From Carcharhinus amblyrhynchos (Eukaryota): 64,000 bases of DNA. Under the pieces are notes generated by a model. That model did no database searches. It saw only the letters and a program-made list of their open reading frames with translations, and was not told the DNA's origin. Positions 16,612 to 50,365 of the stretch are shown in pieces. Made by a program: the position numbers and the translations under genes. Every line of letters begins with the position of its first letter. The first letter of the stretch is position 1. The stretch spans positions 116,994,001 through 117,058,000 of the forward strand of contig OZ336870.1 of the NCBI GenBank assembly GCA_965287045.1, given 5' to 3'.

Positions 16612-16786
16612 CTGGTACCAGGAGTAGGCCCGATCTGAAGGGTTGATGAGAATGGTGATTATTTTCACCTTTGGCAAGAGGGCTGCGGCTCGTTTTGGAG
16701 CGTCCTCGGAGTGGAAGTAGTTTGCACTTTTCTCAAACAAGAAGTCGGTGGTCACATTGGAAGGGATAGGAAAAAAATTCATATAC
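16612..16786 (-). CDS. ndst3: NDST3/4 exon (175 bp), contains 3'-PB motif
   Basis: tgtag|G TAT ATG...TAC CAG|gtaac. Translates (W)[58 protein letters not shown]. Confidence 0.96.
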
Positions 16787-19700
16787 CTACAAAATTAGAA
16801 GAGTAAATTTTCATTATTATGATTGCATTATCTAGAGATTGCAGTACTGCAAACTAGAACTATAACGCTTTGTCTCAGAATTGCTAGCACAATACGATCT
16901 TTAATCTCTCCTGTGTCCGTTGGCTGAACTGCCTGCCCTTCATCACATCCAGGGAATGTTGTTTAAAGGTAGGAAAGATTTGTATTTGTACAATGCTCTT
17001 GATAATCAGTGGACATCTCAAAGTGCTTTGCAGCCCATGGTACTTTTGAAGTGCAGTCACTGCTGTAATGCAGGAAATTCAATAGGCAGGGGGAGAATTA
17101 AAATAAGTATAAAAATGTCCATGTATCTTCCAGAAAGTTTTGAGTACAATATGATTCTTGAATGGACTGATGGTTCCTTACCTACTTGGAAAAACTAGAC
17201 AAAAATATGCTGGTGGGGTTCTCTGGTCCTGCCAGCAGTGGTCCCCACCTGTGGGTTTCCCACATGCGTGGGGTGACATCAACGGGAATTCCCATTGACA
17301 GTGGTGCGACCAGAGAATCCTGCCATTAGCAAACAGTGTGCCACCTCCCACTGGCAAGAAGCATGCAGCTGGGAGGCTGGAGAATCTCACTCAGTTTCTG
17401 ACAATTGGAAATCTGATTTCAAATAATGAAGAATTTATTGTAAATTTTTGGTGACTGTCAGTGAGGAGAGAGCTCACAGTATCCAGAGACTGAGCTCCAT
17501 AGAGAAGGAAAGTGAAGATGTCATTCTAGTTAGGGAAGACATAATCATAGTTGTTTGCTCACTAAGTGATTATGAATGTTAATGTACACTTGAGAACAAT
17601 GTAGTCCAAAATCTCTTTGACAACATAGGTATAGTAGTAGGGTCCATTAGCTGATAGAAAGAAAACTAAAATGGGACCCAGATTTGCTGGGCCCCCAATC
17701 CATACAGCCAGTCCCTGATGGCAGCTTGGAGTGAGTGGAAACTCTGTCCATCCCACCCATACCCTATTACATCAGAGGAGGTGAGTCACGGGAAGGAATG
17801 TTCCACACTACAAATGTCTTCAGCTCTGGAACTAATTTATCACTGGAGGTTAATATTCCTTCCGCACACATTGATTTAGATGGCCAGAATTCCTGGAAAT
17901 TGGCAGGGTCTCATTTACGCACGTTACTCCAGCTGCAAATGAAAGTCCCTGACATCATTTTTGGCTCTACCCATGTAGCTATTCCCGGTTTCTCACCCCA
18001 CCCACAAACCTTGGGCTGGGGCACAGCTATCTCCTCTGGTATGAAAAAGGATCCGTAGTTGCAGTCAGGGCAAGCTGACTGAAGTTCAATATTACTGCAG
18101 CTGCTAGTGTGTTTTGACACTTAAAGGCTGCCATAGTTGAAAAAAATACTTCCCCAATGGTAAATGCTCTGCTTTGTCTAACTCCCATACTCTTTATTCG
18201 AAGGCACAATGTATGTCAACTGCCCTGTTGGTTTGCCTGCCTTTCTGACTGATGAGCTGCCTGTAAGGAGCATGATCAGCACTGGCATCTATTCAATGCA
18301 AGTTAGGCCCATTCATGAAAATTGATCAGGCCCCCTGCTAACCTTATTGAACATTAGGATCCTGCTGATCTCATTGGTGTTACGTGTGAACAGTATTCAA
18401 GTCAATGCAATTGAAAATTGGGACAGTTGGAAAATGGGCTGACATTTCACAATTGACTGTTTCACACTTTGCCCAAAGTTAATCTTACCCCCAGTATAAC
18501 TTTGAGTTTCAAGTTAGATTGAAAGGGTTGAATACCCCCACCGCAGGGGATACAGAAACTGGTTGAATTTCCATGGGTTTTCCCTCGCCAAGTATGGCAG
18601 AAGATCCATGAAAACTTCAGGGAAATGGGGTTGGTGGCATTCCCTGAGTTTTCCATGGATCTTTTGCCGAAGCTATGATAGATAATCAGGAGAGCCACAG
18701 CTGAATATTATTGGTGACCTTCTTAAAGAATATCTACTAAAATTAAGCTTTAGGAATAGACGGTCACCAAGTACTTTATTGAAACACCCATAAGAGCATA
18801 AGAATATGCTTAAAAGTACAGTCTATTCCACAAAACCTATTTCAATCTATTAAGGAAACATACTACAAAGTTTTTTTTTGATGACCCCAACATTAATAAA
18901 TGAAATGCCAGACTATCTTTTCATTCCACGTTTATGTCATTCAACCCTGGTCAAAGCTACCACTGCATTCCATGTACTATTTGATTATCTGTGCTGTTCT
19001 TATCCCTACAGCCATCAATTCTATTCTAACCACATATTTTTTCCATTTCGTTTCTGAGGAAGGATTACTTGACATAGGGCCAACTCATTTTGCTGCTAGT
19101 GCATTCCACTATGCTGAAAGGATTTCTTTTACTCACAATACCGCGTCTTATTTGAGGCTTATTAATTTTGTATGAGTCCTTTAGTTCTGAGGTCGCAGTC
19201 AAAGTTAAATGGCTTGTATAAATCTTCACCATTTATGCTCCTCATCATTTTTGCTACAATTCCTTCCTGTTAATTATCCCCAGTGAAAATAAGTTTAATC
19301 AGTATCTCTGAAAAATTTTGACTTTTGAGTCTGGTATCACCTTTGTTGCTTTCCTCTGAACCGTTACAAATGCAGCAATATTATTGTGAAGATTCAGGGG
19401 CTGGATTTTCAAAGCAGGATCAGGAACCTGTAACCCAGATAATGTGCAAGCCAAAACCCTGCAACGCAACAGCATCACTCATGCAATGCTATTCTAAAAT
19501 GTAAATGTTCTAACTGGGCCAAGGCAAGCTCAGTGCCGAATTAGTGGCACTGAGCATCTCCAGAAAGTAGGAGGAGTTACTTGCAGAGTGTGAACAGTAA
19601 ACAAAGATGACACCATAATGGAGCCTGCCATGGCCTTGCTGAAGAGAAGAGGTAGCATCTCAAAGTGTCAGCCGCATACACGTTCATGAGTGGCCACATG

Positions 19701-21436: not shown

Positions 21437-22344
21437 TTATGTACACATGGATTAATTATCAGGAGGCAATGAAAAATTTTGATTGCTACATAAGGGAGCT
21501 TTTTTGGCTTGATAGAACTCACTGCTAAGCTTGGTCTATTTCTTTCCAGTCACATAAAACATTATAGAAGCAATGGATCTGTGAGGCCTTCATACTTGTC
21601 TGAAACAATGGCAGAATTCTCCCTAAAAATAACGAAGTGCTGCTGCAAGCAGGGAAGCTGGAATTTTAGTGCTGACAGCGATTGTCAAGTGGCATTTAAC
21701 CACTTTTAGTTTTTAAAATATGCACAGAGTGAAGCATGCCAGCTCACCCATCTTCACAGAAATCACAGTGCCATATTAAAAGGGCACCCCGATCTCAGAG
21801 ACATGGAACATGCCCTTACCCTGTCCCCATGGAAACATCAACCCCCCCCCTCCCTTCCCACCCCCTGCTGTTAAGAGCATCAACCCCAGCCCATTATCAC
21901 CGAAGGGCCATCTCCTTCCTACCCCTGAATGAACAAGTTCCACTTCCCCCACACACCATGCAGGCATAAGGCTGCCCCCCCCCCCAGTAACAGGCCCGAC
22001 TCTTCAACCTCCCCCGCCCTCCCCCAACCCTCCACCCCATCAGAGTTACACACTGACATAAGGTCACCAAATACTCAGCCCCTCTCAGGCCATCCTTGAG
22101 ACTCCACACTTTGACAGTGCCATCCTGGAGAGAAATAAGCACACATATTCCATGTGCTGGACATTCACTGAATCTTGTTGATCATGCTGCAGGTTATTGC
22201 TGCCTCGTCACAGTAAATCCTTTTGCTGTTGTAAACAAATACACTCATTCTTCTCTGCCTCGACAAAACACTGGACAGCACTCCAGTCATTCTTGGGTCC
22301 TGAGTCCACTGCACCAAAAGATCTCTCTGACACCAGGTGGGAAA

Positions 22345-22523
22345 TGATATGGAGATGCCGGCGTTGGACAGGGTAAACACAGTAAGAAGTCTCACAACAA
22401 ACAAGGTTAAAGTCCAACAGGTTTATTTGGTAGCAAACGCCACTAGCTTTCAGAGCGCAGCTCCTTCTTCAGGTAACTTACCTGACGAAGGAGCAGCGCT
22501 CTGAAAGCTAATGGCGTTTGCTT
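22345..22523. mobile_element. Short Penelope-derived palindromic insertion with 13-bp TSD and hammerhead motifs
   Basis: Direct repeat accaggtgggaaa at 22332-22344 and 22524-22536. 45-bp inverted arms at 22432-22476 and 22478-22522. Homologous to the terminus of the Penelope element at 49262-49350. Confidence 0.85.
22440..22476 (-). ncRNA. Minimal (Penelope-type) hammerhead ribozyme motif
   Basis: Minus strand UUAC-CUGAAGA-A-GGAGC(UGC)GCUCU-GAAA-GC-UA-GUGG: conserved CUGANGA and GAAA boxes, stem II, palindromic AGCU stem III, CUA cleavage triplet, stem I UUAC/GUGG. Confidence 0.6.
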
Positions 22524-22664
22524 ACCAGGTGGGAAACACATACGTAAAGTTTAAAGTTTATTTATTAGTGTCACAAGTAGGTTTACATTAACATTGCAAT
22601 GAAGTTACTGTGGAAATCCTCTAGTAGGCTCATTCAGTCATAGCTGAGAGTTATGGTTCAATTA

Positions 22665-23246
22665 TAAGAACATAAGAACATAAGAAATAGGAGCAGGAGT
22701 AGGCCATCCAGCCCTTCGAGCCTGCCCCGCCATTCAATAAGATCATGGCTGATCTGTCGCTGCTCAGTTCCACTTTCCCGCCCTCTCCCCATAACCCTTA
22801 ATCCCCTCTCCTATCAAAAACCCATCAACCCGCGTCTTAAAAATATTTAGCGAGGCAGCCTCCACCACTTCAACGGGCAGAGAATTCCAGAGATTCACCA
22901 CCCTTTGAGTGAAGAAGTTCCTCTTCAACTCTGTTCTAAACCGCCCTCCTTTTATCTTGAGGCTGTGCCCCCTAGTCCTACTGTCTTTTTTGAGCGGGAA
23001 GAGTCTTTCCACCTCTATCCTATCCATCCCATTCATCATCTTATACGTCTCAATGAGATCTCCTCTCATTCTTCTAAACTCTAACGAGTACAAGCCCAGT
23101 TTATTCAGCCTCTCCTCATAGCTCAACCCCCTCAACTCCGGTATCAGCCTAGTAAACCTCCTCTGCACTCCCTCCAAGGCCAAAATATCTTTGCGCAGGT
23201 GCAGCGCCCAAAACTGCACACAGTACTCCAGCTGCGGCCTAACCAA
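22665..23246 (-). mobile_element. Young 5'-truncated CR1-type LINE with uninterrupted ORF2 C-terminus
   Basis: ORF 22764-23246 VRPQLEYCVQFW...RGDLIETYKMM...RVVNLWNSLP has no stops or frameshifts. Tail of taagaaca repeats at 22665-22690. Confidence 0.95.
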
Positions 23247-27456: not shown

Positions 27457-27580
27457 CAATCAATTCCCTTGTGATAGGCATTCCCATTGAAGAACTGCAC
27501 TTCTTCAAAGGTCTTTGGGTTGGGGAAATTACTGGTGATAGCTGGATGCATAATTAGGAACAAGTACAAAGCCGTGGTGC
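27457..27580 (-). CDS. ndst3: NDST3/4 exon (124 bp)
   Basis: Not in the ORF track; read manually. ctcag|GC ACC ACG...GAT TG|gtaag. Translates (G)[40 protein letters not shown](W). Phase 1 in, phase 2 out, matching its neighbours. Confidence 0.96.
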
Positions 27581-28524
27581 CTGAGAACAGAAAATATTAG
27601 AAAACTTATTGATGTGCTTGTGCAGAAATTGCTGCCCTTCTATCCGTGGCACTTTATCAGTGGAGCTTCTTCCTGCAAGCAATTTTTTTTTGAAAGAACT
27701 GCAAAAACACTGTTCTGTGAAATAATAGATTACTTAATTAGGACACAGTAATTACAGAATATTAGCATAATTCAATTTTCACCATTATTACCGTGTACAT
27801 GGTAGAATGGCATAAAACAATTTGCAGTGACAAATTAAAATACAAAATTATTTACCATTTCGGGCAGATATGGACTGCTAATGTAGTCAACATATTTAAG
27901 TCAATGGCTATTAATGGATATTTGCACTTGAATAGAAATTGATAATTTAAAACAAAAATTTACAGCCATTATGTTTGATGCTACTAACTAAATAATCTTA
28001 GCTATGTCCTACTGCTTTCTACTCTTCTTTGTTCCTTTAAAGATTGTGCTTAGTTAGTCTTTCTACCAAATCTAATACTTCTACATTTTTGACAGCCTTC
28101 TATTGTAATTAAAAGCTTCCCATATATCACGCCACGCAAAACAATTACAAATGATTTGCAGTGTGCTTCTGAGAAATGAATAAAAATATTGTTTGAAAAG
28201 AACTTATTCTCTAAATAGAAATAGAATGCATTTTTTTGGGAATTGTCTAACATCATCCAAACTACAGAAAAAATTTCAGTGAAATGCTTTATATGATTAA
28301 TGAAAAATAAACACAAAACCTTCATGCAAGATGGGTTATTCATTGTCACAGGTCCATCTCAAAAGGCCAACTGTCTTATCAAATGTGAGGGGCAATATTA
28401 ACTTAGCCTACTTAGTGGGAAATTGACAAGATCGGATCAAACGATTTTGCTTTCCATTTCAGAAAATAATCAATCATCTGTATCAGCTGGGTGCTCCATG
28501 GGCATCTACAGGCATATCCTGGGT

Positions 28525-34145: not shown

Positions 34146-34328
34146 CTGCCAGAGCGGGTCCTTTTGTTCTGGAAAAAGCTCAAAGTATTTGTGTGCCAAC
34201 TGCACAGGGGGCATTGTTTGCAGCTTCAGGTTGGTCCAGCAGTGCACAAAATTAGCCAGGTTCACAAACGTGTAGAGGCCCAGTCGATCATTCCCATAGT
34301 TGGATAAATGTGTCATGAAGATGCTGAT
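34146..34328 (-). CDS. ndst3: NDST3/4-type N-deacetylase/N-sulfotransferase, internal exon (183 bp), end of N-deacetylase domain
   Basis: Minus strand tttcag|ATC...CAG|gtgtg. Translates [61 protein letters not shown], the hallmark NDST sequence. Phase 0/0. The symbol could equally be ndst4. Confidence 0.96.
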
Positions 34329-38495: not shown

Positions 38496-38708
38496 CTTAA
38501 CCTTAGTATAAATAAGGGTTAACGCTTAATGTACAGCAAGGGGTTTGTAACGGCAAACTATCCAAGCCAAAACAATTGGATATCAAGATACAGCTCCAAA
38601 AAATCATTAACTTCAATTTAATAAACACCTGTAAGCTATAAAGAAAAACAAGCTTCTCTGCTCACTTTACTGCTGTGCCGAGGCAAGCAGCAATTTTAAC
38701 TAATCTCA

Positions 38709-39086
38709 AAATATTCCGTCTGCGACTTGGGATATTCTGGCTGCGACTCGGGATATTCTGACTGTGACTCGGGATATTCTGACTGTGACTCGGGATATTC
38801 TGACTGTGACTTGGGATATTCTGACTGTGACTTGGGATATTCCGTCTGCAACTCGGGATATTCCACCCGCGTCTCAGGATATTCCGCCTGCGTCTCGGGA
38901 TATTCCGCCTGCGTCTCGGGATATTCCGCCTGCGTCTCGGGATATTCCGCCTGCGTCTCGGGATATTCTGTCTGCATTTCGGAATTTTCTCTCTGCGTCT
39001 TGAAACATAATGTCTGTATCTCAGAGTAACCTGTCTGTATTGCAGGATGCGTGGTCTGTGCAAGCTCATCAAAATGTTTAGACATT
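38709..39086. repeat. 21-bp minisatellite (13 clear units plus about 4-5 degenerate in-phase units)
   Basis: Units atattctgactgtgactcggg and atattccgcctgcgtctcggg start every 21 bp from 38711 to 38963. Degenerate units continue in register to about 39070. Confidence 0.97.
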
Positions 39087-39403
39087 ACTAATCTCAGTTT
39101 AAACAAATAATAACACCTTTGTGTATTTAGGGTCAAAGCCAAGGCAGACTGAAAGCATGCTCGCATTTTTGTTTATCAGTCTGGTCACAGCTATTGCCTT
39201 TTATCCAATTAGAGTGCAAAATAACGTCAATCATCAAATATTTAGCCTTGCTTCTATTGTGGGTATTTGAGATATTTGGTTTCTGCTGTGTGCTTTATCC
39301 TTATTTGAAGCTTAGCTCTTCTCCAGCGTGGGGAAGGATGATCCAAATACAATGAAGCACACAGTGTAGAGACTGCTTTGATCCTGAAGTATTATTGCAG
39401 CAA

Positions 39404-40729: not shown

Positions 40730-43091
40730 TTTGTTTGTTTAATATATTGCTTCTTTGTATTTTAAGAGGCCGTTAGCTTTATAATTTGACATACTCAAAA
40801 GAGTCTAAAAGAGGCCCATCTGTGAATCCCACAAACCACTGTGCTTGTGTTTTTAAGCACTGCTTAAGTAATATTACCTTTTCATCGAAACGATCAATCA
40901 TATTGTGGTGATTGCCCCTTTAAGGACTCAACTGCAGAGTAAGAGTCACATGACCTGGGGAACTTTCTTGCTGGCTAACTGAGGCCACAAGCCTTTGTAA
41001 TAAGTAAATAAATGTTGTGGTTATTATTTACCTAACTGGTGAAGTGAAATTATTACATTGGTGATGAGGATTAAAGAAAAACACAGCGGTCCCAAGATTG
41101 TGAGTATAAAGTCATATTGAAGTTCAGTTCATGTTGAGAAACAGATGAGTGTTTGCAGATATGCCCCTATTTGGATGGATAGATCCTTCTGGTGATCGAT
41201 GGAGGATTGGACACAATGTATTGAATGTTTGAGCTATTATTTTTAGGCCAACTGAACAGAGGAGGAGTGGAAATGGAAGGCAATCCTTCTGAGTGTCTGT
41301 GGGACTCAGGCCTACAGTTTATTATGCAGCTTCACATCCCCAAATGTGCCTGACTCCAAGTCATTCACTGAGATAGCTGAAAACACACCACCAACCAAAA
41401 ACATACTGCAATGATTTAAGTTTACCTTAATCAGGGGACCCCTGGGGAATCTACTGCAACATATATCCCAAATTAAGATAGATCTCAGAGCATTGTGACC
41501 TTGGAACCACTCTCAATGAAATGCTGCGTTTAGCCGGTGGTATAAATAAGGCCATCCAGAGGAAGCTATTAGCAGAGACAGTCACAATGTTAAGGCGGCG
41601 ATGGAGATGGTGTTGGCAATGGAGACCGCTGAGAAAGGTGTACAGGAGTTTCAGAGCTGGCAAAATGACGCAATTCACAGTTAGAGTGAGAAGCTGCAGT
41701 CAGCAGTGGCTCCAAAAATGAAGATGTATTTTAAAAGAGGAAGCAAATGCAGCCATGAATAGAGTGAGAAGACTTTTAAAAAGCCAATCAATCACCTAGG
41801 ATTGAAGCAGAGAGTTACCAGTGTGGGGGTAATCGCTCCCCTGAAACCTGCAGGTTTAAAGAGGCTGAATGTTTTTATTTGCTGCAGGAAAGGTCACTTA
41901 AGGAACTGGTGTAAAGTAATACATTGCAAGTGCATAGAATGGAAGTGACCAGAGAATGAAAGAGATTTGAATATTCACTCATTGTTCAATATAAAAGTGA
42001 ATAAGGTTGCCTTCGTCACTGTGATGCTTTTGGTAAATGACAGCCCCTTAAAGATGGAAGTTAATATGGGAGCCTCTGCCACGGTGACAGAATACCACAC
42101 ATTTTGATATTTACAAGGAAGAGTCCAGCCATTGAGTTTGAAGATACCATAGCAAAACTAACAACTTACACAGGGGAAGCTATCAAGATAAAGGCTACTA
42201 CCACAGTACCTGTAAGCTGTAAGCAGTAGTCCACTCAACGTCCAGTAATAATAGTGTCAGGGCAATGGCCATGTATTTTAGGTTGTGATTGGCTTAAGGT
42301 AATCAAGTTAAACTGGATGGAAATCTTCCATACTGAGAAGGGGGAGTGCCTGAATTAATGAAGAAGAATGACAATATTTTCTGTGACACATTGGGTAAAA
42401 TAAAGGGCCTTGAGGGGAAGATCTATGAAGATCTGGAAGCAATCTTATGACCAGGAGCATGTGCCTCGCAAAAACATTGGACGTGGAATTGAAGAGATTG
42501 GAAGAAGTGGGTACTATCCAACCAGTTCAATTTGCAGAGTGGGCAGCATTCATAGTCCTTGTGATTAGGCCTGACAAGACATCTGTGGAGTGGGAAGCGC
42601 TCATAGTCCCTGTGATAAAGCTTGATAAAACCATCCGCATCAAATTAACAGTTAATCAGGCTGCCAAATTAGGTAAATATCTAATCTCGAAGATTAAAGA
42701 CTTGAATGCAAAGCTGACTAGAGGCCAATCTTATTCAAAACTGGAAATGAGTCACACATATCAGCAACTTGAATTAGACGACACTTCCCGAAGTTATGTC
42801 ATGAGAAACACACACAAAACTTTGCACTTACTCTTTTGTGTGTCATCAGCATGTGCTATTTTTTATAGAACAACAAAAAGTTTATTGCCAGGACTGCCAC
42901 AAGTTGCACTGTACTTGGATAACGTTCTGATAACTGGATTGACAGAAGCTGAGCACTTAGCTAACTTAGAGGAGGTACTAAAGACATTTCAAGAAGCTAG
43001 AGTTTGCCTCAAAGGGAAATATATTTTTCAAGCTACTGAGACAGCCTGTCTGGGATATCCTAGTTGCACTAGGATTACACCCCATGGAAGA

Positions 43092-45115
43092 CAATCGTTT
43101 GAACGGCACCTCAACTTTTTGTTGGCCATAAGTGAAAGCTGGGCTTTAAAAAATGTAAGCGTTAATTCATGGTTCACATAAATTTTGGCCTTATCTTCTC
43201 GTATGCATACCAGCTCCCTCTGAAATGGTTCTTGATACTTACACAAGAGCTCCTGGAAAACCTCATCCTTGATGCTGAATATTTCCAGTCAATTCAACTT
43301 GCTTTGCTCAGCCAGTCTCATCCCATAAGGCTAGGCTTCTGTTCCTTCACTGCTATCAGGGTTAGCTAGGCAGACTGGTGCTGGTAAAATGCCTGTGTGG
43401 ATGACATGCCCAATTCCTTCAGTTCCTCCCAGTATAGGTTGCCAACTTGGCCATTGTACTTCTAAGCCTCACAGACTGCACCCCTCCCTGCAAATACCTG
43501 TAGGTTTTCTCTCCCATTGCTGGAGCGCCTGTATTGACTTCCAAAGTTAATGGACATCCTTTTAAAGGATGTTTTCAATGGTGGCAAGGGGAGAGGTGTG
43601 TTTTATTTAACTTTACAATGTTGAACTCATAAACTTTGGACTTCTTTTCCAAATCTTCCTCAGTCTTGTTCACTGGAGTCCTCGTTTTATTTTCTTGGGA
43701 ACTAGGTGTCGTCTGTTTGATTCTGCATCTGGCTCGTCTGTGGCCTTTCCAAGTTCATCTGAAACAAATGACATCTTTACATCTGCATCTGTCTCGGGGA
43801 TGGCATCTGCAACAACGGTAACATTTGTCAAACCCTTGTGGCTGATGACTTCTCTTCCTTCCCTCGGGTATATCGAGCTGCCACTATTTCCTGCCAAGTT
43901 TTATTCACCTCGCCCTGCACGCCTTGCAGTTCAAACACACTCCGTTCAGAGCTTTCAGTCACTTGAGCCAGTTCAACTATTTTACCCAGGGATATTTTAG
44001 TTCCCGCCAGCAACTTCTTCTGAATGTTCAAATTATTGCTACTTGGTGGCACAGTGGTTAGCACTGCTGCCTTACAGTGCCAGCTGGGTTCAATTCTGGC
44101 CTCGGGTCACTGTTTATGTGGAGTTTGCACATATTCCCCATGTCTGGTGTGGGTTTCCTCTGGGTGCTCCGGTTTCCTCGCACAGTCCAAAGATGTGTGG
44201 GTTAGGTTGATTGACCCTAGTGTCAGGGGATTAGCAGGATAAATGCGAAGGGTTCTGGGAATAGGGCCTGGGGGGGGGGGGATTGTGGTTGGAGCAGACT
44301 CGATGGGCTGAATGTCCTCCTTTTGCACTTTAGGGATTTGATGATTCTAAGAACATCACATAACATATCATTTAGAGACGGGCCAAAATCTCAATGTTCA
44401 ACCTTTTGACAAAGCCTGGTGACTAAAGCAGAAACCTGGCTCCCTTATGGCTGAATGGAATTTATATCGCTGCTAATAATGGAGGGTTGGGGATTGTGGT
44501 CGTGTCTTATTAGGGCAACTAGCTGGTCAAAGGATTTTGTATCTGGTGCCTCCAGAGACATTAGGCTTCTTATGAGGTTAGATGTCTGTGGGCTACACAA
44601 CATGAGCAAAATAACTTTCTGCTTTTCATCGGAATTTATTTTGTCAGGTGCAAAAAATATGGAAGTCTTTCATTGTACTGGCTCCAATTTTCAATCTCCA
44701 ATGGATGGATTTTCCTGAACATTGGCTTAGCGACTCTACTATGATTGGGACAATAAATTTCTACCTTCCCTACAGTTCTTCAGGGAATCACCCTCTCCCC
44801 TCCAAATGTTGACTTTTTTTTGCAGCTGTTGGCCAATTTATTCTTATTGCCAATATTGCAGTGTGAGGTAAAATGACAAGAAAGTCTTAAATCACAATAG
44901 TGATTTGTTGAATGATAGTTATAATTGTTTACAGACAAGCTGAGTACAGATACAGATCCAGCCCCACCGACTCCTGGGCTTAGGCTGCAGATTTCACCTT
45001 CCTGGACCCAAGCCCGAAGACTCAATAGGCTAAGGTTCGCACGCTCCATTCCAATAGGCTCCAGGAGTCATGTGACCATTGAACAATCACCCCTTAAAGG
45101 GGTCATGCTACCATA
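43092..45115 (-). mobile_element. Second Gypsy element nested antisense, 3'-truncated
   Basis: LTR about 44854-45115 (TATGGTAGCATGACCCCTTTAAGG..., similar to the host LTR start) and PBS-like TGGCAATAAGAA at 44841-44852. gag ENWSQYNERL...LIRSLMSLEAPDTKSFDQLVAL; pol start KYQEPFQRELVCIREDKAKIYV...FFKA. Confidence 0.85.
44044..44348 (+). mobile_element. HE1/V-SINE-type SINE inside the nested Gypsy gag
   Basis: Head, V-domain and tail. Confidence 0.9.
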
Positions 45116-48834: not shown

Positions 48835-49260
48835 AATCAAGGAGCAGGAGCAGGCCATTCAGCCCCTTGAGCCTGCACCCCTCATTTAATTTGATTTGAT
48901 AGTAATCTCAAATATGTGTCCGGCCACCTCCCTGTAACCTATCACCTCTTGCTTACCAAAAATCTCTCCACCTCTGCCTTAAAAATATTCAAACACTCTG
49001 CTTCCACCACCTTTTCTGACAGACAATTTCAAAGACTCACAACTCTCTGTGTGAAAAAAGTTTGCTTCATCTCCATTTGAAGTAGGCTCATTTTGTTTTT
49101 AAATAGTGATCCCCTAGCTCTAGATTCTCCCACAAGTGGAAACATCCTCTCCACACCCATACTGTCAAGACCCCACAGGATCTTATAAGTTTCAATCAAA
49201 TTGCCTCTTCAAAACTCTAGTGGATACAAGGCTAGTCCCTCTAAGCCTTCATCATAAGAC
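48835..49260 (-). mobile_element. CR1-type LINE 3' fragment, tail-to-tail with the previous one
   Basis: ggagcaggagcaggccattcagccccttgagcctgc antisense tail and decayed ORF2 end. Confidence 0.8.
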
Positions 49261-49261
49261 A

Positions 49262-50365
49262 CTGTAAGAAGCCTCACCACACCAGATTAAGGTCCACCAG
49301 GTTTATTTGATAGCAAGAGCATTTGAAGTGCTGCTGCTTCATCAGGTGAGTGGAGGATTGGGTTCACAAACAGGGCATATATAGATACAGACTCAATTCA
49401 CAAGATAATGGCTGGAATGTGAGTCTTAACTGGGAATCAAGTCGTTACAGGTACAGACAACATGAGTGGAGAGAGGGTTAAGCACAGGTTAAAGAAGTGT
49501 GAATTGTCTCAAGCCAGGACAGTTAGTGAGATTTGTTGTGGAGGTTACAAGTAGTGTGACATGAATCCAAGATCCCAGTTGAGGCCATCCTCACGTGTGC
49601 AGAACTTAGCTATCAATTTCTCTCAGTGGTTCTGCGTTGTGTGTCTTGAAGGCCACCTTGGAGAACACTTATTCGAAGATCAGAGGCTGAATGCCCTTGA
49701 CTGCTGAAGTGTTCCTCGACAGGAAAGGAACATTCCTGCTTGATGATTGTTGAGTGGTGTTCATTCATACATTGTATCCGCATGGTTTTGCCAATGTACC
49801 ATGCCTCAGGACGTCCTTTCCTGTAGTGTATCAGGCAGACAATGTTGGCCGAGTCGTAAGAGTATGTAACGTGTACCTAGTGGATGGTGTTCTCACATGA
49901 GACGATGGCATCCACATCAATGATCCAGTACATCTTGCAGAGGTTGCTGTAGCAAGGTTGTGTGGTGTCGTGGTCACTGTTCTTCTAAAGGATGAGTAGT
50001 TTGCTGCAAACAATGGTCTGTCTGAGGTTGTGCGGTTATTTGAAGGCAAGTAATGGCGGTGGCCTTGGCGAGATGTTGATCTTCATCAGTGACATGTTGA
50101 AGGCTCCGAAGAAGATGGAGCAAATAAGAAGGAGCTTCTCTGCTCCAGGAAAGTACTGGACGATGAAGGGTACTTTGTCTGTTGTATCTTGTATTTGTCT
50201 TCTAGGAGGTTGGTGCGGTTTTTCGCTGTGGTGCATCGGAACTGTTGATTGATAAATCGAGCGCCATATCCTGCTCTTATAAGGGCATCTTTCAGTGTCT
50301 GTAGGTGTCCTTTGCAACCCTTCCCATCTGAGCAGATCTTGTGTATATGGAGGGCTTCAAACTCA
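49262..50365 (-). mobile_element. Penelope-like element (end of RT, GIY-YIG endonuclease, terminal repeat)
   Basis: Minus-strand fragments ALHIHKICSD, HLQTLKDALIRAGY, DTTDKVPFIVQYFPGAEKL, PPLLAFK, SANIVCLI and EAWYIGKT. Decayed hammerhead CUGAUGAAGCAGCAGCACUUCAAA at about 49322-49346. Confidence 0.88.

Follow-up and report, generated by a model that had tools for sequence, protein, structure and literature searches.

A Probable Decayed Penelope-Like Insertion with Head-to-Head Hammerhead Motifs in an NDST-Type Intron of Carcharhinus amblyrhynchos

The Locus and Its Host Gene

The window considered here, the whole 64,000-nt stretch of Carcharhinus amblyrhynchos DNA that was analyzed, contains exons of an NDST-type gene on the minus strand, marked by what we take to be NDST motifs at 34316, 32620, 27506, 16734, and 6920. 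The exon at 16612-16788 matches human NDST1 with an E-value of 1.6e-27, and two of the five NDST-type exon pieces compared with Pfam match Sulfotransfer_1, both below the cut-off. Exons lie on both sides of a short insert at 22332-22536, which bears out the original prediction that the insert occupies an intron of a minus-strand gene of this type. The insert itself is very probably a decayed, 5′-truncated copy of an abundant Penelope-like element (PLE), in which two pLTR arms stand head to head between 13-bp target-site duplications (TSDs). Family positions are counted backwards from the tail end (position 0); on this scale the CUGANGA core of the hammerhead begins at -126 and the predicted cut falls after -98. 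The features of the locus are as follows.

16612 to 16788 (approximate limits), minus strand: NDST-type exon downstream of the host intron, from motifs, the human NDST1 match, and Pfam
22234 to 22331 (resuming at 22537-22549 and about 22635-22665), no strand assigned: older low-copy repeat that received the insertion, from six paralogues
22332 to 22344, no strand assigned: left copy of the 13-bp TSD, from the perfect repeat and the paralogous empty sites L207, L210, and L205
22345 to 22382, minus strand: PLE tail of ~38 nt, forming the 3′ end of the long arm, from comparison with family copies
22345 to 22476, minus strand: long, tail-bearing arm consisting of the last ~130 nt of the pLTR plus the tail, its 5′ end at family position -130
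22440 to 22476, minus strand (the sense strand of NDST): hammerhead motif of the minimal type I, from the core pattern in the sequence
22477, no strand assigned: head-to-head junction with a 1-nt centre, the arms reaching family positions -132 (an initiator-like A) and -130
22478 to 22523, plus strand: short, tail-less inverted arm reaching family position ~-84, from the inverted-arm match and family comparison
22478 to 22514, plus strand: second hammerhead motif, inside the short arm, with a G·U pair at 22502 and a break of stem I at 22511
22524 to 22536, no strand assigned: right copy of the 13-bp TSD, from the perfect repeat
27459 to 27581 (approximate limits), minus strand: NDST-type exon upstream of the host intron, from motifs and Pfam

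Several other elements share the window. A short-period tandem repeat at about 38700-39170 gives rise to long minus-strand frames of low complexity, and a 250-codon open frame at 42429-43178 on the plus strand resembles a decayed reverse transcriptase of an LTR retrotransposon. A second copy of the PLE family, 1.1 kb long, lies on the minus strand at 49259-50357 and comprises the ORF end, the pLTR, and a tail-less end at about -34; its hammerhead is degenerate and has lost the GAAA core.

Structure of the Insert and Its Target Site

The 13-bp direct repeats are perfect and enclose 179 nt, as had been described. A repeat search of the window likewise recovered the fold-back, with inverted arms of 45 nt each (22432-22476 and 22478-22522) that pair at 42 of 45 positions (93%) around the single-nucleotide centre, an arm-to-arm identity inside the range of 0.80-0.96 found for other copies of the family. 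The hammerhead-core pattern has exactly two matches in the 64-kb window, at 22447-22472 on the minus strand and at 22482-22507 on the plus strand, in agreement with the proposal of one minimal motif per strand; not one of 100 shuffled controls contained any match. The three differences between the arms fall where the original prediction had placed them, at N7, in the stem II loop, and at the first 3′ base of stem I (22511), the last being a C·A mismatch that does break stem I in the plus-strand copy. An argument for selection, from two of three differences lying at free sites, was set aside as post hoc (about 0.02-0.18 according to the choice of sites) and offset by damage at 11.1 that both arms share. 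The notion that the fold-back is an end added to a 179-bp unit had to be abandoned, as the plus-strand arm holds the same pLTR segment over again, in shortened form.

The repeat that received the insertion has six paralogues with 74-84% identity, among which L207, L210, and L205 present empty sites carrying a single word resembling the 13-mer; in L207 and L210 this word directly abuts sequence resembling the right flank in the window. The repeats bounding the insert are, on the evidence of these paralogous sequences, a true target-site duplication, as had been claimed. No empty-site joint for 22000-22660 was present among the joints listed from sequencing contigs, which are mostly repeat copies and are accompanied by 265 further joints. 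The left junction is carried by a contig of another organism with 15 differences in 351 nt, of which 25 nt lie on the element side (the bar being 31 nt), so the insertion may be old. A 3′ piece of another, very abundant repeat occupies about 22550-22625, beginning 13 nt past the right TSD; it sits within the old low-copy repeat and is missing from paralogue L207.

The Parent Element

Comparison of the 179 nt with the animal's own genome returned 3356 first-look candidates, and among the 40 that were scored most are arranged head to head like the window copy but with a longer second arm. Counted as exact matches, a 28-mer from the hammerhead occurs 882 times in the genome, and a 23-mer from the tail, at the 3′ end, occurs 6114 times. 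The long arm of the window is 90% identical to the natural copy L038 and 77% identical to the intact young copy L105. In copy L038/L061, the pLTR known from the window is joined upstream to a broken frame encoding reverse transcriptase (RT) and GIY-YIG, together with an inverted arm of 0.94 kb, and a search with the L038 frame led to intact elements with an 893-aa ORF whose ATG begins at the last bases of the tail. At L104-L107 the tail is succeeded by intact ORFs, these elements being partial tandems that also include an inverted 5′ copy.

The 893-aa ORF matches RVT_1 in Pfam above the cut-off (E 5e-10). Pfam detected no GIY-YIG domain on the intact ORF or on the fragments, the pieces of broken L038 yielded nothing real in Pfam, and a PDB search with the intact ORF gave no matches. 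The atlas neighbors of the ORF carry RVT_1, HTH_animal, and GIY-YIG, at 0.96-0.98, and the sequence of the L105 ORF shows a CX4CxxC linker as well as cysteines placed between GIY and YIG. A single ORF with RT followed by GIY-YIG, the latter assigned from motifs and atlas neighbors, is thereby linked to the terminal sequence, and this link elsewhere in the genome bears out the Penelope-like origin that had been postulated. The intact copies form a younger subfamily with 77-83% identity to the window arm; for the subfamily to which the window copy belongs, the link comes from broken L038.

The pLTR in partial tandem and/or with an inverted 5′-truncated copy, as in EN+ PLEs, is found at L104 and L105 and, as inverted copies, at 60 of 88 sampled loci (see below). 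By the criteria in PMC8557442, the element is, from its sequence features, a PLE of the Neptune/Nematis type. It shares with those elements, as far as that text describes them, the single ORF with RT and then a C-terminal GIY-YIG, the cysteines between GIY and YIG, and a CX2-5CxxC linker, which is common to Neptune and Nematis and takes the form CX4CxxC here; microsatellite targeting is not seen in the TSDs listed for the present family. The family may already be catalogued in repeat databases.

The young subfamily (L104-L113) has unbroken ORFs, with 917-codon open frames at several places, and a 111-aa piece of its ORF drew 18,516 first-look candidates, suggesting, at the level of sequence, recent or ongoing activity.

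Hammerhead Motifs in the Family and in the Window

In 121 family arms that were found without a pairing constraint, pairs 2-4 of stem II are Watson-Crick in 110, 99, and 103 arms, respectively, and their covariation lies above that of all 2000 shuffles, a ranking among related sequences that is not a probability. Pair 1 (10.1-11.1) is G-C in 96 of these arms and G·T in 18. A separate set of 14 representatives was chosen for perfect stems and is hence biased. With its core, covarying stem II, and palindromic stem III, the family carries the minimal PLE hammerhead, and the original prediction of such motifs holds at this level. The resemblance to the minimal type I hammerheads of metazoan PLEs, as given in the available portion of PMC4209133, extends to the CUGANGA/GAAA core, the extra A between positions 9 and 10.1, the G10.1-C11.1 pair, the palindromic 15-16 region (AGCU), a 4-bp stem I, and a covarying stem II. 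It also mentions paired motifs, one on each strand, with 100-700 bp between them, whereas the motifs in the window, known here from sequence, are about 10 nt apart and have G·U at 10.1-11.1.

The window copies fare less well than the family. Both arms have U at 11.1 (22452 and 22502), so that a G·U pair replaces the conserved G10.1-C11.1, and stem I contains two U·G pairs in addition to the C·A mismatch of the plus-strand arm; neither copy combines the G10.1-C11.1 pair with an intact stem I. To speak of an "intact copy" on the NDST-transcribed strand was consequently an overstatement. The predicted minus-strand cut would fall between 22444 and 22443, after CUA. According to PMC4209133, a single minimal motif does not cleave and dimers cleave at a low level. 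The ribozyme of the window is predicted to be inactive. The two arms could not supply a dimer, as they lie on opposite strands and are never in one RNA; a same-strand partner within the window was also considered and rejected, since the only other family copy (49259-50357) is without the GAAA core. The covariance check that had been proposed did not succeed either: Rfam returned no hammerhead family for the window, its 14 rows being hairpin-shaped miRNA matches far below the gathering score.

Positions 11.1-12 form a CpG in the subfamily, at which C-to-T and G-to-A changes are nearly equal (13 and 14 of 66), as decay by methylation predicts. Homogenization of the two arms found no support: the state of this CpG agrees in 5 of 30 arm pairs against 10.7 expected, with TG in both arms in none of the 30, although the choice of loci was biased. 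By eye, L005, L009, and L024 also have U in both arms, so the double loss in the window is not unique.

Insertion Architecture across Copies

The arrangement was surveyed in the first 91 of 100 listed tail matches on contig C1, which after removal of three duplicates gave 88 tail-selected copies. An inverted arm adjoins the 5′ end in 60 of the 88, and in 53 of these 60 the short arm is tail-less and ends at -28 to -45. A TSD score of at least 9 was reached by 40 of the 60 inverted copies, compared with 1 of 28 solo arms and none of 273 swapped-flank controls; together with the empty-site paralogues of the window, this gives the TSDs expected of an EN+ PLE. The duplications measure 12-14 bp in 31 of the 40, those listed reveal no microsatellite targeting, and 20 of the 60 inverted copies are without a clear TSD. 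The outer ends of two-armed copies are fixed, at 0 and about -36, and the turning points are spread continuously between about -25 and positions past -1000. Further 5′ reach belongs to the tail-less arm in 29 of the 60 copies and to the tail arm in 12, and the two arms end within 10 nt of each other in 19. Both arms include the core in 20 of 60, and both end at -118 to -150, as in the window, in 12. The tail, of 30-40 nt, is present at one end only: in 39 close junctions one tail was scored in 27, two tails in none, and no tail in 12. The palindrome is the normal insertion shape for this family.

This architecture has a published counterpart. Head-to-head inverted pLTRs with a one-sided tail of 30-40 nt and a TSD of 8-10 bp appear in PMC3846280 and PMC8557442, where the insertion units of Adineta Pen2/Pen2a (PMC3846280; PMC8557442, Fig. 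2) likewise have 5′-truncated pLTRs, TATA- and initiator-like motifs in the pLTR, and partial tandems in full-length copies. On the same descriptions, the present case differs in that TSDs are 12-14 bp rather than 8-10 bp, the window copy consists of two pLTR stubs without an ORF and with a short arm 46 nt below the usual, and thousands of copies permit statistics.

The short arm of the window is peculiar to it. An end at -84 occurs in none of the 60 sampled inverted copies, and no second copy with this short arm was found among the best 29 matches or those 60. Its end sequence can be read exactly as position -84 following on the usual -38 end, with 2 nt of microhomology where the two meet, and a jump or deletion of 46 nt from the usual end is its likely origin on this sequence evidence; alternatively, it could stem from cDNA primed at a match of 4 nt with an additional base.

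Other arrangements were encountered in the sample. Four identical inverted insertions with identical TSDs, about 50-75 kb apart, lie at L122-L125 (C1, 5.34-5.52 Mb); these are a local tandem or segmental duplication and were tallied as one. About nine tandem copies of a 22-nt segment from the short-arm end lie at L040:1022-1225, resembling slippage at the priming site. The nested or multiple inverted arms clustered at L051:1501-2051 reflect either repeated insertion at one spot or a re-mobilized palindrome.

A Shared Centre without a Propagating Unit

The original prediction regarded the insert as a small non-autonomous retroelement, to be recognized by identically structured inserts elsewhere. 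Genome-wide counts, made with shorter patterns, yielded 238 sites with the exact geometry of the window's centre and 2593 sites with back-to-back cores within 16 nt (control, 11), and 39 of the first 50 of these belong to this PLE family. The shared centre was thus found many times over; the short arm ending at -84, with none in 60, was not. A palindromic, retrozyme- or MITE-like element that is transcribed and re-inserted as a unit would account for the 238 sites, for the modal spacer of 9 (11 of 39 family sites), and for the 12 of 60 inverted copies with both ends at -118 to -150, and non-autonomous PLE derivatives do exist, according to the available part of bioRxiv 10.64898/2026.07.22.740005. 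Against it, the one geometry is found together with four or more different versions of stem II and of the flanking sequence, which are matched inside each locus, and at the 11 sites where the centre base could be assigned it agrees with the tail arm in seven and with the tail-less arm in four. Many identical copies with different TSDs, the mark of a fixed structure, were not found. The turning points, moreover, are continuous, the window's short arm is unmatched within the scope given above, and the tandem monomers typical of retrozymes are absent. Non-LTR retrozymes have in common with the insert a PLE-derived type I hammerhead and a lack of coding capacity, but they are head-to-tail tandems with hammerheads on the same strand, whereas the window has a head-to-head pair with one hammerhead per strand. 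Movement of the 179 bp as a unit is therefore regarded as very unlikely.

With several subfamilies sharing the centre, either arm contributing its base, and the -84 end unrepeated, the centre appears from these sequences to be a hotspot reached independently, and since the turning points vary so widely the palindrome was likely built anew at each insertion rather than copied as a unit.

Back-to-back pairs are also formed by another family, unrelated to this one, whose core is hammerhead-like and whose stem II differs; it accounts for eight of the 11 non-family sites in the first 50 (L225, L237, L250, L253, L264, L268, L269, and L270).

The 5′ Ends at -130 to -132

Among tail arms that reach -120, 24 of 39 stop within 25 nt, compared with 35 of 139 in neighboring bins (p 4e-5), and for tail-less arms the corresponding figures are 19 of 38 and 26 of 121 (p 0.002). 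The 39 close junctions supply 78 arm ends, of which 51 lie at -130 to -132 (14 at -130, 11 at -131, and 26 at -132), with six at -133 and six beyond; these junctions were limited to a 16-nt spacer, and the calls at -132 include a 1-nt ambiguity from microhomology. In samples free of the close-junction selection, the 5′ ends range over -126 to -143 and gather a second time at -135 to -143, so that there is no single 5′ wall.

In 52 of the 58 long copies, the A of an initiator-like BBCABW stands at -132, usually 29-30 nt past a TATA-like word, a spacing that is not independent because the 58 were picked from the 121 arms for that word. Position -130 is also the first base, and thus the 5′ edge, of hammerhead stem I. 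The preferred reading, in which the start site is put forward from motifs, is that the pile-up suggests run-off at the start of the transcript.

Definition of the 5′ ends by ribozyme cleavage was rejected, since they cluster some 32 nt to the 5′ side of the predicted cut and not at it. A spliced template for the ends near -140 is not supported, the sequence upstream being the opposite arm or unrelated flank, and apparent stops 35-44 nt upstream of the core are an edge effect of the 45-nt stretch that was scored.

At L105:1204-1340, a transcript starting at -132 would lose its cap to the hammerhead cut 34 nt in, about 97 nt before the ATG; given that start, removal of the cap might, speculatively, act as a self-limiting switch.

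Formation of the Two Arms

The two-armed insert in the window is likely the outcome of one insertion event in which reverse transcription was primed from both cut target strands. The endonuclease would nick the strands about 13 bp apart, and each target 3′ end would prime cDNA at one of two internal sites on the RNA, the tail end or a site about 36 nt further in. The cDNAs would be extended until drop-off, most commonly at -130 to -132 and likely at the 5′ end of the transcript, and their inner ends would be joined through 0-4 nt of microhomology, unless one cDNA folds back onto itself. The hammerhead, at -130 to -94, would lie just inside the usual stop and so be included in both arms. After insertion, both copies in the window would have lost the G10.1-C11.1 pair, likely by CpG decay.

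Biochemical precedent is provided by the Poseidon element of Anolis (PAc), whose protein in vitro, as described in PMC11167929, cleaves and extends both target strands, begins reverse transcription at two internal positions, one on either side of the tail, and copies RNA that has not been cleaved. These activities suit the fixed outer ends, the concentration of TSDs in two-armed copies, and the further reach of either arm, and the 5′ ends of the present family lie upstream of the cut site at -98. PAc differs, on that description, in that its ORF starts within the hammerhead and its tail lies inside the ORF, whereas here both are upstream of the ATG. Fold-back of the tail arm alone was rejected, the tail-less arm reaching further 5′ in 29 of 60 copies. 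An arm's own partner is its most similar arm in only 6 of 18 pairs, so that a common template molecule for both arms is not demonstrated.

A more specific version, offered tentatively as a real possibility, is that the ~230-bp palindromes are double "strong-stop" products of a dimeric PLE enzyme acting at both target nicks, with both cDNAs running off at the capped A at -132, immediately ahead of the hammerhead. The two sites for priming would be those in the 5′ pLTR that the element's own mRNA carries, and the identical cDNA ends would anneal by a 3-nt overlap with a central mismatch, leaving a palindrome with a 1-nt centre. A competing account, which we find rather unlikely, replaces the transcript start by a pause of RT at the 5′ edge of a folded, and possibly protein-bound, hammerhead and derives the inverted arm by self-priming fold-back. 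The coincidence of -130 with the first base of stem I and the further ends at -135 to -143 speak for a pause, as do, within the text available, the attribution of junction palindromes to self-priming in PMC3846280 and the requirement of PAc hammerhead cleavage for the element's protein in PMC11167929. A 1-nt centre cannot, however, directly make a snap-back loop, the initiator-like A stands at -132 in nearly all of the long copies, and the fixed outer ends and the frequency of TSDs (40 of 60 two-armed against 1 of 28 solo copies) mean that a second primer would still be required. Run-off at the transcript start, primed from both target strands, remains the preferred reading.

The Hairpin in NDST Pre-mRNA

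Transcription of NDST produces the antisense arm first and the sense hammerhead after it; the latter would then be trapped in the 45-bp hairpin, and cleavage is not expected. Computed folding of the 205 nt gives one long hairpin of -98.7 kcal/mol, in which the hammerhead stems have a pairing probability of 0.0 and could be forced only at a computed cost of 57.7 kcal/mol. The masking of the sense motif by its own antisense arm, which had been suggested, thus stands up computationally, yet there is probably little activity there to mask.

Recruitment of the hairpin by the host, whether as a regulated ribozyme switch or as a Drosha, Dicer, or ADAR substrate acting on NDST, was also weighed. The stability of this intronic hairpin is compatible with such a role, as is the junction in the contig of another organism, from which the insertion may be old. 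The arm identity, however, is unremarkable beside that of other copies, the conserved base at 11.1 is gone from both arms, the miRNA matches in Rfam are far below gathering, and with 2593 back-to-back sites genome-wide, of which this family supplies 39 in the first 50, nothing singles out the window's copy. Such recruitment is considered extremely improbable.

Concluding Remarks

The locus is one decayed copy among thousands, with an architecture that has been published, and in itself matters little. What is new is confined to the statistics of two-ended priming and the -130 to -132 hotspot; genome-scale statistics of this kind were not found in the literature searched, which includes few subscription papers. 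The data set bears on how PLEs make inverted ends. The two fixed outer ends, the near-confinement of TSDs to two-armed copies, the further reach of either arm, and the pile-up of 5′ ends at a predicted transcript start all fit the in vitro activity of PAc, and all are testable. If the strong-stop interpretation is true, thousands of copies would record the transcript start, the 12-14-bp stagger of the nicks, and the two-ended priming of PLEs.
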